DNA of 62,966 nt, filler included, from Licmophora abbreviata (taxonomy: Eukaryota), in NCBI GenBank assembly GCA_900291995.1. It is 7 parts of 7 records of this genome, joined end to end, with 100 filler letters (N's around TTAATTAATTAA, not from the genome) between each part and the next. Parts side by side here need not be neighbours in the genome. Positions count along the whole stretch, not along the records: positions 1 to 14,036 come from OLMU01002632.1; 6 more parts are not named here. One strand, written 5' to 3'. Both the position numbers and the translations under genes were made by a program. This document shows, in pieces, positions 4,597-61,756 of the stretch (its first letter is position 1; each line of letters starts with the position of its first letter). The notes below the pieces were generated by a model, which ran no database searches, was not told where the DNA came from, and saw only the letters and a program-made list of their open reading frames with translations.

Positions 4597-6590
4597 TCAA
4601 TCCCATTCTGTAGTCTCTTCCGCATTTCCTTCCTTCGTAGCTTCTGCAGCCGCTCGCTCCTCCTGAAGCGCCTCGTGTCGCGATCGCCTCGCACGATTCA
4701 AGCGATACTGATCCTTCATCTCTTGCAAGGCCAGATCCAGCTGTCGGTTCGATTCCAACTCGACAAAAGCGAAAGTCGTGTTCATCGGGACCGTAGCAAT
4801 AACTCCACGATCGCCACCATATTTTCGAAATGCGCGTTCTAGTTCAGCACGCCGCAACTCGACTTCTGCTTCGGTGGAAATACGCGACATGCCACTGACG
4901 AATAGCTTGCGCTGGAAAACCAATGAGAATCAACCAGTGAGACACTGGATGACGACATCTCAGGCAAACATCCTAACGCGAGTATACATACCGGGTGTAG
5001 ACCACTGAACACATTTGTACCTGCAACGTGAGAGAGGTCGCCCTGGGCCATTGACGCCTTGTGGCCCCACCAGACTTTGTAAACTGTCCACACCTCTCGA
5101 CCTGTCAGTTCAGCAAGAGCCGACATCTGGTATGTTAACGACCAGCGTGCGATAGGTTTTCACAGGTTTTATTTTCACCCTCGAGCGATTCTGCACTTAC
5201 TTCCGTAGTCATCTGAGCTCGGGAACTGCAAGACCAAAGGTCCTTGTTTCGATGGTAGCTGCCGACGATGCTCCAATCGAGCGCAGTGCTCACCCTCGAG
5301 GATCACATCAAAGCCATCGCCGTTTATCTGGATGACAAGAGTACACGCCGACTGTCCGAATATCAAAGGAAGCTGTGAAAGTGGAATGTTAATGCCCTGT
5401 CCCCAAATTCCTGCTTGCTTGTCGTTGACAACTACCTGGCCACCACGTTCGTGCTGACGTGGATTGAAGTGAAATAGCACGTCGAAGAAATCTGCATGAT
5501 CCGGTCCGGCAATGTTGACACTTGATTCAGATGAGAAAACGACCGCTGAGATATGAGGCGTCAAAGAGAAAAGCACACATAAAACCAATTATCTGATTGA
5601 TCTCTGCGTACCTGAAACGTTTCGAGTCCGGAGGAGCCATGAATTTGATTGCGAGTGTGTTGTTGCCTTTGCCGACCCGTGCTTGTTCAATATCAAAATC
5701 TTCCAGCTGAAAGCTCAGAGCGTCATGGTTGGGAGTCATCGAGGACTCAGGTGGAGACCAGCTCACTGAATCGGTAGACATTGGAAACAATACTTTGCCT
5801 GCGTTGACGGGAAATTAGAGCAAGGCGGGAGGTAGTCTTGGTAAGAAGCGCCTAGTGTATAAAGAAATACAACGCAGTGTAGGCACGCTCCCCAATACAC
5901 ACCTGTATAGCTCTTGAGTCCCAGCTCCTGAGAGAATTCGTGGGGCGGAGTCGCTTGATGGCTGAGATTGGCAATGAGCGACGCCTTCTCCGCTGGCGCG
6001 TCCAGCCTCTTGCGTTTGAGTGATATTCCGGTTGTACTCTCCGCTGCATCGGCCGCAGAGGCGAGATGTTGCTGCCGCAAAGCTTCGGCGGCCGCTTCCG
6101 ACTCGGCTTTCACAGAATTTTTCGCCTCTTCCACCTGTTCTCGCAATTCGGCCAATTTTGCTTCGCGGCGTTGGTGCAGTGTGTCCGCGCCCCCCTCTTC
6201 TTCGTCGTCTTCTGATTCCAAATCGTCGTCGTGATCAATGCCTTCGGCCTCGTGTTTTACCAGTCGGTCTGCCTTCCTTTTCCGCGGTTTCTTCTTTTTG
6301 GGAATTTCCTCGTGTTGCTCTTCCTCTTCTCTGGATTGCTGAAACTTGGCGTCCGCTGCGGCCAATTTGGCTTTGGCTTGACGCTCCTTGATCCGTGCTG
6401 CTTCCTTTTCGTAGGTTCGAATCGTCTCGTACATTTTCAGCAGCTCCTCTTCTTCTCTTGTCGGTTCAAAATCCTCTGGAAGCGGCACAAGATTGTATTT
6501 TGCTTGGGCAGCCGCTGTCGGTGTCCTCCAGCTCGGTGGCGGCAGAGGAGGAGCCGCGGGTGGGCCTCCCGGTGCCGGTATGGGTACCAT
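4597..6590 (-). CDS. Coiled-coil/NLS-rich protein with a galectin-like domain and a C-terminal RRM (5 exons)
   Basis: Introns 5902-5799, 5611-5521, 5200-5102 and 4991-4912 (all GT-AG) splice in frame; galectin signature KRFSVNI...VLFHFNPR...VVVN....WG; RRM RNP2 KLFVSGM and RNP1-like TTFAFVEL; basic clusters KKKKPRKRK and KRKR. Confidence 0.8.
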
Positions 6591-6935
6591 GGTTCTTTGC
6601 GAAGAGTGTGTCTTAAGTTTTCATTTCCGCCAATTGAATCGACTGATTCGACTGGATCGATTCGATTACGAGACGAGTTGGTTCTCGCGCGCGCGTGTTC
6701 GAGAGTGTCTCATGTGACATGTCTCATGTCATGCTTATTTTCGGGTCTTCGTGGCCTTTGGCGCCAAAAAACAAACAAACTGACGAGGCCAAGTCACCGC
6801 GGCACGGCGATGCCCAGTCGAGCGCCGATGATCGATGATTATACTTTGATCTTCCCACGCGCACGGTCGACGCCCCGTCGCCTACCTCTTTAAATTTTCA
6901 GGTTTCTATATTTGGCAGAAGGAAAACGATTGACG

Positions 6936-8099
6936 ATGAAAAGCGGCCGGATGAAGACTACTACTATGCCGATACTTTGTAGCATGGTTGTAGTCAGCTT
7001 GTCACTTGGGATCGTCTATTTCTATCTGGAAACTGAACGTCTGAAACGAAAGATTTCGAAAACAACGAGCAACGAGACAGAGGAGTCGGTGGAGAAGAGT
7101 TCCGAAAGCTCGACAGACTCCTCCAAGAGAGATTTCAGCATGCATGAAATCGGTGTCGTGTACTCGCCCTTCCCCCAACGAGCTGGATGTCCCCGTCAGG
7201 GAACCTTGGCGCCTCATGTTGCGTCGCACGTTCTGTTACATTCTCACTTATCCGCTGATATATTGGACGGGATCACCTCTTATTCGCACGTGTGGGTGAT
7301 CTTCTCCTTTCACTTGAATTCTCGTGGCAAAGCAAAGCAAGGGACCAGAAAGGGGTCGAAAACATTCACTGCTGCCAAGGTGCGACCACCTCGGGCAGGA
7401 GGGCGAAAGATCGGAGTACTTGCGACACGGGCTCCGCATCGGCCCAATCCGGTCGGTCTGTCGTTGGCTTTGCTGGAATCTGTTAGCGTTGTCAGCATAC
7501 GAGGGAAATCTCACGCTTGTTTGGTATTGCGCGGGTTGGATCTGGTGGACAATACGCCCGTATACGATATCAAGCCGTACGTTGTTTGGGACTCTGTGGA
7601 ACGCTCCACACTACGTGTCCCGTCGTGGGTATCGGCAGAGGACGAGATGGCCCAAGTGACATGGAGTGAAGCGGCAAGGGTCAATCTGGCGTTTGCTCAA
7701 CGGCATCTGGCTCCTCTATACCCCAAGAGTGACCAAGGCATTGCGGATGCTTCCAAGGCAATATCTGAAATTGTGGCTCAGGATCCGAGAGCGCCTCGTG
7801 ATGGACGTGGCGCCTCATCTGTATCATCAGCGTTCGAGTTTTCGTTTGGTGAACTACGGGTGTCTTTTGTCGTAGATGAACGCAGGGTTGCAAAAATTAT
7901 TTCAGTGATTGTCGACGAAGGGGATCTCTCTGCTACCGACGGAAGCTATCCGCGTAATCTTGCAGTTCGCCGCAATGCGGAAAGGAAGACGACAGAACGG
8001 GGCGACAGAATCCCAAGCTGGGCAGGTCCCGTGCGTGAGGGCGATATGGAAAGCTTGTTGCAGCTCCAGGATGGAACGGTCTGGCAGAGTCGGGCATAA
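6936..8099 (+). CDS. TRMO: tRNA (adenine(37)-N6)-methyltransferase, TsaA/TrmO family
   Basis: Motifs IG.VYSPF..RAGCPRQG, YSHVWVIFSFH, KVRPPR..G..IGVLATRAPHRPNPVGLS, GLDLVDNTPVYDIKPY, QDPR. Confidence 0.9.
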   Translation: MKSGRMKTTTMPILCSMVVVSLSLGIVYFYLETERLKRKISKTTSNETEESVEKSSESSTDSSKRDFSMHEIGVVYSPFPQRAGCPRQGTLAPHVASHVLLHSHLSADILDGITSYSHVWVIFSFHLNSRGKAKQGTRKGSKTFTAAKVRPPRAGGRKIGVLATRAPHRPNPVGLSLALLESVSVVSIRGKSHACLVLRGLDLVDNTPVYDIKPYVVWDSVERSTLRVPSWVSAEDEMAQVTWSEAARVNLAFAQRHLAPLYPKSDQGIADASKAISEIVAQDPRAPRDGRGASSVSSAFEFSFGELRVSFVVDERRVAKIISVIVDEGDLSATDGSYPRNLAVRRNAERKTTERGDRIPSWAGPVREGDMESLLQLQDGTVWQSRA

Positions 8100-14036: not shown

Positions 14037-14136
14037 NNNNNNNNNNNNNNNNNNNNNNNNNNNNNNNNNNNNNNNNNNNNTTAATTAATTAANNNNNNNN
14101 NNNNNNNNNNNNNNNNNNNNNNNNNNNNNNNNNNNN
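14037..14136. other. Artificial contig linker (N44-TTAATTAATTAA-N44)
   Basis: 100-nt spacer with six-frame stop cassette, identical at six positions. Confidence 0.98.
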
Positions 14137-23365: not shown

Positions 23366-23465
23366 NNNNNNNNNNNNNNNNNNNNNNNNNNNNNNNNNNN
23401 NNNNNNNNNTTAATTAATTAANNNNNNNNNNNNNNNNNNNNNNNNNNNNNNNNNNNNNNNNNNNN
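23366..23465. other. Artificial contig linker
   Basis: N44-TTAATTAATTAA-N44. Confidence 0.98.
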
Positions 23466-25335: not shown

Positions 25336-25435
25336 NNNNNNNNNNNNNNNNNNNNNNNNNNNNNNNNNNNNNNNNNNNNTTAATTAATTAANNNNNNNNN
25401 NNNNNNNNNNNNNNNNNNNNNNNNNNNNNNNNNNN
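25336..25435. other. Artificial contig linker
   Basis: N44-TTAATTAATTAA-N44. Confidence 0.98.
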
Positions 25436-31855: not shown

Positions 31856-31955
31856 NNNNNNNNNNNNNNNNNNNNNNNNNNNNNNNNNNNNNNNNNNNNT
31901 TAATTAATTAANNNNNNNNNNNNNNNNNNNNNNNNNNNNNNNNNNNNNNNNNNNN
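31856..31955. other. Artificial contig linker
   Basis: N44-TTAATTAATTAA-N44. Confidence 0.98.
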
Positions 31956-51760: not shown

Positions 51761-51860
51761 NNNNNNNNNNNNNNNNNNNNNNNNNNNNNNNNNNNNNNNN
51801 NNNNTTAATTAATTAANNNNNNNNNNNNNNNNNNNNNNNNNNNNNNNNNNNNNNNNNNNN
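51761..51860. other. Artificial contig linker
   Basis: N44-TTAATTAATTAA-N44. Confidence 0.98.
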
Positions 51861-61656: not shown

Positions 61657-61756
61657 NNNNNNNNNNNNNNNNNNNNNNNNNNNNNNNNNNNNNNNNNNNN
61701 TTAATTAATTAANNNNNNNNNNNNNNNNNNNNNNNNNNNNNNNNNNNNNNNNNNNN
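61657..61756. other. Artificial contig linker
   Basis: N44-TTAATTAATTAA-N44. Confidence 0.98.

Follow-up and report, generated by a model that had tools for sequence, protein, structure and literature searches.

A stretch of 62,966 nucleotides from Licmophora abbreviata (assembly GCA_900291995.1; seven parts joined end to end with filler between them, hereafter called the window) carries on its minus strand a gene whose product combines a galectin-type β-sandwich with an RNA recognition motif (RRM). Both folds are encoded by one gene, and this two-domain core is deeply conserved. A single protein-coding gene of a diatom-like stramenopile accounts for the locus: five exons joined through four introns give a coding sequence of 1620 nt, 539 amino acids and a single terminal stop. 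An earlier note on this DNA had proposed that a galectin-like domain and an RRM are fused in the product of a single gene. This proposal was upheld: both domains were present in transcript-derived relatives, the exon junctions aligned without gaps and the architecture was kept across stramenopiles.

Reconstruction of the gene

The five exons were rebuilt and, as had been proposed, spliced in frame, with GT..AG boundaries at four introns out of four and a frame of 539 codons. The outer limits originally given for the gene, positions 4597 and 6590, proved to be exact, and the motifs KRFSVNI, FHFNPR, VVVND, WGQG, INGDGFD and HR were all found within the spliced product. The pieces of the gene are distributed over five separate six-frame open reading frames (ORFs) of 285, 95, 137, 106 and 110 aa, so that the fusion is not visible in a six-frame list, as had also been pointed out. 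When read without splicing, the gene runs into a stop at codon 276. The first ATG of the frame is that at 6590, and an in-frame stop is located 10 codons before it (stop-to-stop ORF 5763-6620). Intron 3 is the sole intron with a length divisible by three.

Alignment of the spliced product with 10 orthologues gave 48-73% identity and zero gaps at all four junctions. Across the junction of intron 4, the orthologues were continuous, H-P being directly followed by R-K-L-F. At least four of the ten (P0011, P0024, P0041 and P0088) are named 'Transcript ... type:complete' by MMETSP, which indicates that these orthologue proteins are derived from transcriptomes. Other relatives are EukProt entries. 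Among the relatives as a whole, the species named include Odontella aurita, Cylindrotheca, Chaetoceros neogracile and Pseudo-nitzschia.

Two alternative acceptor sites were rejected. An upstream AG near 5560 for exon 3 and the site C-A-G/A-T-G for exon 4 both broke the frame, and the sites chosen in their place are supported by the orthologues. A six-frame scan of the window revealed no second H-x-N-P-R motif, the only one being that of the galectin-RRM gene.

A complete galectin fold

Exon 3 alone was recognized by the Pfam model PF00337 (E 1.5e-08), its score of 34.6 bits lying above the cut-off of 22.1. The closest relative, P0001, scored 36.7 bits with the same model, and the profile of the family matched galectin-8 with an E-value of 5.6e-28.

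The structure of the galectin part was examined on the AlphaFold model of P0001 (73% identical overall; alignment of 60 sequences), which stands in for the window protein. This model has a mean pLDDT (per-residue confidence) of 84.5 and, over residues 211-510, block values above 90 except for one block at 79. When it was submitted to Foldseek, the top matches listed were all galectins (best E 1.4e-10); ESM Atlas gave no usable match for P0001. Superposition by VIA-align onto the galectin-9 N-domain (galectin-9N, 2d6k_B) yielded a Z score of 17.5 and a root-mean-square deviation (rmsd) of 1.9 Å over 143 of 143 residues. The fold match spans residues 218-400 of P0001, which correspond to aa 230-412 of the window protein and thus to exon 2, exon 3 and the start of exon 4. 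The galectin fold put forward in the earlier note is confirmed both by the profile search and by the structural match, and the β-sandwich is predicted by the model to be complete at aa ~230-412.

Conservation of the sugar-binding site

The sugar-site signature of galectins consists of H-x-N-x-R, the Asn of V-x-N and W-G-x-E-x-R with its Trp. In the window protein, H309, N311, R313, N324 and W331 align to their equivalents in galectin-8. Among 60 aligned family members, the His, Asn, Arg and Trp were each present in 60 and the Asn of V-x-N in 59. The alignment has a mean column identity of 28% and contains only 9 invariant columns, four of which are these H/N/R/W positions. In contrast, the Glu column of W-G-x-E-x-R held Glu in a single member out of 60, with Ala, Gly or Ser in most of the others, and the Arg column held Arg in five, with Asn, Ala, Gln and other residues elsewhere. 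It had been noted earlier that H-x-N-x-R, the Asn and the Trp are kept and that the Glu is replaced. This is correct and applies to the whole family, but the description was incomplete, since the Arg is replaced too (N336 in the window protein).

We take the retained part of the site to be made of the galactose-stacking and O4-binding residues, according to the roles of these positions in galectin structures. Judged from the alignment, this part is under strong constraint, whereas the part that completes the binding of lactose or N-acetyllactosamine (LacNAc) is gone. A conserved ligand groove is therefore likely in terms of sequence, and canonical lactose or other glycan binding appears doubtful because Glu and Arg are missing almost everywhere.

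Among the matches listed, an intact W-G-x-E-x-R was found in one of 44 family-like representatives. This protein, P0216 (506 aa), reads W-G-A-E-L-R and is a candidate for retained β-galactoside binding; its complete motif suggests that the family descends from a canonical lectin.

Affinity for β-galactosides is part of the classical definition of a galectin. The window protein has the fold, the profile match and the H/N/R/N/W residues of the class, and it lacks the Glu and the Arg. As one element of the signature fails and sugar binding is hypothetical, the domain is best called 'galectin-like' or 'galectin-fold', and we do not claim a proven galectin.

An ancient stramenopile family

A search for longer proteins with exon 3 identified, among 255 candidates, 219 relatives at E ≤ 0.001, of which 120 were listed. 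According to precomputed annotation, 61 of these 120 contain both PF00337 and PF00076 (hand count); the other 59, many of which are short fragments, contain PF00337 only. When 28 relatives were scanned with Pfam, both domains were detected in 9 (one with a sub-threshold RRM), the galectin domain only in 17 (two of them sub-threshold) and nothing in 2. When 1.84 billion representatives were searched exhaustively with HMMER, 196 matches at E ≤ 0.001 were obtained, and the family-specific x-W-W-G strand was present in 44 of the 150 listed. The named members include Ectocarpus fasciculatus, Discosporangium, Hapterophycus, Tribonema, Heterococcus, a Hydrurales chrysophyte, Chrysoparadoxa and Aureoumbra, and a search seeded with a short form reached Phytophthora infestans and P. 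capsici. An RRM-like C-terminal part was seen in 17 of the 18 diverse members viewed, the Aureoumbra sequence stopping short of the RRM.

The two-domain design is thus found in diatoms, brown algae, xanthophytes, chrysophytes and Phytophthora, so that the fusion is ancient and stramenopile-wide. The galectin fold, the W-W-G strand and the RRM form the core common to diatoms, brown algae and Phytophthora; as far as the sequences indicate, the helical N-terminus and the helix ending in W-D are diatom additions. A single origin of the fusion can be argued from the shared derived features only.

Beyond the family, the nearest of the matches listed were giant multi-galectin proteins of catfish, at ~33% identity. 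Five giant proteins (P0121, P0122, P0127, P0136 and P0139) contain 11-19 matched galectin stretches each; P0121, from Ictalurus punctatus, is 3272 aa long and named just 'uncharacterized protein'.

The RRM and the C-terminal helix

At the position of exon 5, the RRM_1 model (PF00076) scored 27.9 bits in P0001, 37.4 in P0176, 38.7 in P0190, 53.1 in P0211 and 45.1 in P0287. The exon 5 product of the window, folded with an alignment, adopted the order β-α-β-β-α-β followed by a helix, with a pLDDT of ~90 over residues 1-70 (strands 2-6, 38-40, 48-51 and 70-73; helices 14-27 and 55-64). The Foldseek matches listed for this model were all RRM chains, with probabilities of 0.95-1.0, and its comparison by VIA with U1A, U2B'' and SNF gave Z scores of 10.7-9.6, U1A being the best with 10.7. 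By sequence, the nearest solved chains were the RRMs of SRSF7, SRSF3 and SRSF1 (best E 0.0026). The consensus of the RNP2 and RNP1 motifs comprises RNA-stacking aromatics as well as basic, Gly and Asn positions. Of these, only the aromatics are kept in the window protein, and the oomycete and brown-alga members possess near-canonical motifs.

In diatom members, the RRM is followed by a conserved C-terminal helix (R-A-R-R-S-R-H-E-A-L-x-E-E-R-A-A) and a terminal Trp (W-D or W), both of which are absent from the brown-alga, xanthophyte and oomycete members.

N-terminal region and predicted location

The product of exon 1 begins with a Pro/Ala-rich segment; long helices and a low-complexity stretch of acidic and basic residues come next, and after them the conserved motif T-P-P-H-E-F-S. 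Pfam scans of exons 1, 2 and 4 returned sub-threshold rows at chance level or nothing. For the N-terminus, described earlier as coiled-coil, the AlphaFold model of P0001 shows only two long confident helices flanking a disordered acidic/basic stretch. Two basic clusters resemble nuclear localization signals (NLS), and 8 of the 10 aligned diatom orthologues have K/R-R-K-K/R at the position of the second. No hydrophobic N-terminus was detected, the maximal Kyte-Doolittle mean over 15 residues being 0.39 within the first 75 aa, so that secretion of the product is not expected. Its N-terminus and basic clusters point to an intracellular protein. A two-copy complex prediction for exon 1 gave a score of 0.00 with the alignment unused by the tool, and provides no verdict either way.

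The T-P-P-H-E-F-S motif is located shortly before the galectin fold. In 34 diatom sequences, its T, P, F and S never vary and its second P and H hardly do; in the model of P0001, the block-mean pLDDT of this stretch is mostly 77-94.

Proposed function and competing explanations

The protein is composed of four parts: a helical acidic/basic N-terminal region with the two NLS-like clusters, a galectin-type β-sandwich, a short linker and a single RRM with its C-terminal helix. It would most likely be an intracellular, probably nuclear, RNA-binding adaptor. The RRM would hold RNA via the retained RNP aromatics, and the galectin groove (His, Asn, Arg, Asn and Trp) would hold a second ligand. Since nearly all members lack the Glu and the Arg that complete the β-galactoside/LacNAc site, this ligand is probably not classical lactose or LacNAc; an altered sugar, or else a peptide or some other non-glycan partner, would be more likely. 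Overall, a groove-bound partner would be brought to RNA or to a ribonucleoprotein (RNP). We lean towards this adaptor model, most of the weight being placed on its structural claims and far less on its mechanism. The earlier interpretation of the fusion as a lectin/RNA-binding module was supported in part: the fusion, the folds and their conservation hold, but glycan binding is doubtful with both Glu and Arg lost. The protein may also be linked to splicing or RNA processing.

Several observations weigh against the adaptor model. The exon junctions were placed by homology, and it is the two basic clusters that make a nuclear location probable. The RRM recognized in the earlier note is borne out by its fold and by orthologues above the PF00076 cut-off, but exon 5 of the window itself scored 19.9 bits, below the cut-off of 20.7 (E 6.6e-04), and the Foldseek E-values of its model were only 4e-3 to 2e-2. 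In its RNP motifs, the basic, Gly and Asn residues of the consensus are lost; with RNP1 and RNP2 degenerate in this way, the domain could bind RNA weakly or bind protein instead. Lastly, H/N/R/W are the most conserved residues of all galectins and are no proof of a working ligand site. Their invariance is partly built in, as they anchor any galectin alignment and as the first search relied on shared five-residue words.

The use of homology for the junctions in Licmophora abbreviata and the marginal RRM score would also fit a wrong gene model, in which the galectin and RRM exons come from two adjacent genes or exon 5 goes unused. However, the 80 nt of intron 4 form a clean phase-0 intron with GT..AG boundaries, the transcript-derived orthologues read H-P-R-K-L-F across it and the same domain order recurs from diatoms to Phytophthora. 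The gapless junctions and this continuity make two genes very unlikely, and we give the idea almost no credence. A true lectin would bind β-galactoside-type glycans on nucleocytoplasmic glycoconjugates, its RRM tying this recognition to RNA processing. In agreement with such a function, five of the seven signature residues have been kept over very deep divergence, four of them invariant and the Asn almost so, the fold is closest to the sugar-binding N-domains of galectin-8 and -9, and P0216 retains the complete W-G-x-E-x-R. On the other hand, single changes at the W-G-x-E-x-R positions abolish lactose binding in galectin-1, and we know of no suitable nuclear glycan in these organisms. The window protein is devoid of both Glu and Arg, and in the family the Glu and the full motif each occur in one sequence (of 60 aligned members and of 44 representatives listed, respectively). 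Moreover, animal galectin relatives with a deviant signature, for example mammalian GRIFIN, are described in an excerpt of PMC10343441 as having lost galactose binding. We consider it unlikely that the protein is a lectin of this kind.

The galectin fold could instead be a relic that serves for scaffolding or self-association only, with no function in the groove, the protein being an ordinary RRM protein of the heterogeneous nuclear ribonucleoprotein (hnRNP) type. The family-specific invariants D395 and W409-W410-G411 lie outside the sugar site, the oomycete form resembles a classical RGG/RRM protein and prototype galectins dimerise through their sheets, all of which would suit a scaffold. A relic site should drift, yet the H, N, R and W have remained invariant, and the Asn nearly so, in an alignment of low overall identity; the chances of this explanation are, in our opinion, small. 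A separate reading, which we regard as a long shot, is that the protein acts on sugar-bearing RNA or RNP as a two-handed reader, the RRM holding the RNA and the groove recognizing a glycan or a glycosylated nucleoside. With similarly little expectation, the glycan could be carried by the same RNA or by a bound protein. If it were true, this ancient stramenopile fusion would be a 'Rosetta stone' for the disputed link between galectins and RNPs, and it would offer glycoRNA-type biology a genetically tractable point of entry outside animals.

Features of the locus and of the window

The coordinates of the gene, of its domains and motifs and of the other features of the window are collected in Table 1.

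Table 1. Positions of the galectin-RRM gene, its elements and other features along the window
Feature	Position	Strand	Description
Exon 1	5903..6590	-	688 nt; aa 1-229 and first base of codon 230
Basic cluster KKKKPRKRKADR	6264..6299	-	NLS-like; aa 98-109
Basic cluster KRKRLD	6000..6017	-	NLS-like; aa 192-197
T-P-P-H-E-F-S motif	5931-5948	-	aa 214-220
Intron 1	5799..5902	-	104 nt, GT..AG, phase 1
Exon 2	5612..5798	-	187 nt; opening strands of the galectin fold; near-invariant Trp243, N-N-T-L motif
Intron 2	5521..5611	-	91 nt, GT..AG, phase 2; K-R-F-S-V-N-I acceptor agrees with orthologues
Exon 3	5201..5520	-	320 nt; core of the galectin-type domain
H309-F-N311-P-R313	5457..5471	-	H-x-N-x-R motif; aligns to FHFNPR of galectin-8
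N324 (V-x-N) and W331-G-Q-G334-I-N336	5388..5426	-	Asn and Trp kept; Glu to Gly, Arg to Asn
Intron 3	5102..5200	-	99 nt, GTAAGT..AG, phase 1; in-frame TGA on read-through
Exon 4	4992..5101	-	110 nt; final strand of the galectin fold, then linker to the RRM
W409-W410-G411	5064-5072	-	in exon 4; invariant, specific to the galectin-RRM family
Intron 4	4912..4991	-	80 nt, GTATGT..AG, phase 0; separates galectin part from RRM part
Exon 5	4597..4911	-	RRM and C-terminal helix/tail; stop codon 4597-4599
RRM	4687..4911	-	aa 436-510, in exon 5; RNP2-like L-F-V-S-G-M, RNP1-like T-F-A-F-V-E-L
C-terminal helix and tail	4597..4686	-	R-A-R-R-S-R-H-E-A-L-Q-E-E-R-A-A-A-E-A, tail ending W-D; diatom-specific
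TrmO_N ORF	6936-8099	+	divergent neighbour; single ORF of 387 aa
N-run pairs	14037-14136, 23366-23465, 25336-25435, 31856-31955, 51761-51860, 61657-61756		look masked or withheld rather than assembly gaps

The divergent neighbour of the gene encodes a TrmO_N tRNA-methyltransferase domain (E 6.8e-32). Its product starts with a hydrophobic stretch, an unusual feature in a TrmO protein. The start codons of the two genes are only 345 bp apart (6591-6935), which suggests that a bidirectional promoter is probably shared. The window also contains six pairs of N runs of 44 bases with 12 bases between them (528 N in total), none of which is near the galectin-RRM gene.

Novelty and significance

The sequences of this family already bear the public labels 'Galectin', 'RNA recognition motif-containing protein' and 'Galactoside-binding lectin/RNA recognition motif'. 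In view of these automatic labels, neither the sequences nor the pair of domains are new to databases; the new part is the recognition of a conserved, uncharacterised family. No paper on the galectin-RRM architecture was found by searches aimed at it in open PubMed Central full text and bioRxiv, subscription journals being outside this coverage. A paper on Perkinsus expressed sequence tags, the sole match for galectin, RRM and diatom or Phytophthora together, was set aside, as the terms occur in unrelated places of its text.

On evolutionary grounds, the fusion offers independent evidence that RNA binding and a galectin-fold domain can share one function, and it bears on the contested role of galectin-1 and -3 in nuclear RNPs. 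In addition, a conserved groove with an altered signature suggests a ligand specificity that is undescribed for the galectin fold. As diatoms and Phytophthora are genetically tractable, these questions are directly testable.

Comparison with known systems

The N-domains of galectin-8, -9 and -4 share the β-sandwich of the P0001 model over nearly the whole of the solved domain (Z 16.5-17.5, rmsd 1.9-2.5 Å), and in the alignment with galectin-8 each residue of F-H-F-N-P-R, of W-G and the Asn of the site has its counterpart. They differ from the stramenopile family in sequence, the identity being ~20%, and in the Glu of W-G-x-E, which is replaced by Gly, Ala or Ser in the family. Moreover, the stramenopile proteins add a segment before the domain, the invariant W-W-G strand and the C-terminal RRM; the diatom members have a long helical N-terminal region, and the window protein also has NLS-like clusters.

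GRIFIN of mammals and GRP/LGALSL resemble the family, by description only, in that the galectin fold is retained with a partial signature and residues of the galactose motif are lost. Unlike the stramenopile proteins, they are small single-domain animal proteins without an RNA-binding domain.

In older literature, galectin-1 and -3 are reported to act in splicing extracts. As in the window protein, a galectin domain is thereby brought together with RNPs; in mammals, however, the association is between separate proteins, neither galectin having an RRM, whereas in the window protein the RRM is covalently attached. The mammalian splicing activity had been invoked in the earlier note as an established precedent, but this precedent is weaker than was stated, since an excerpt of Peltan et al. 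2023 (PMC11648975) reports no RNA crosslinks for endogenously tagged galectin-3. The fusion becomes more interesting in the light of that report, an RNA-binding module being built in.

The RRMs of U1A, U2B'' and SNF have the same fold as that of the window protein, including the helix after the last strand, with Z scores of 10.7-10.2 and an rmsd of 1.7-3.6 Å over 70-78 residues. With respect to these proteins and to SRSF3 and SRSF7, the diatom domain differs by an identity of 14-20% with weak E-values and by its degenerate RNP1 and RNP2.

The P. infestans protein P0287, named 'RNA recognition motif-containing protein' and, in UniRef, 'Galectin', is a member of the same family. It is ~40% identical to P0211, a short oomycete-like form, which is itself ~40% identical to the exon 3 domain of the window, P0287 and the window protein not having been compared directly. 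P0287 differs by another N-terminus, an RGG-rich linker and canonical RNP1 and RNP2, and by the lack of the C-terminal helix and the W-D tail. It nevertheless has the same succession of elements, namely a galectin domain (51.5 bits), V-W-W-G-H and the RRM, and the same state of the sugar site, with H-F-N-P-R, the Asn and W-G kept and the Glu and Arg missing.

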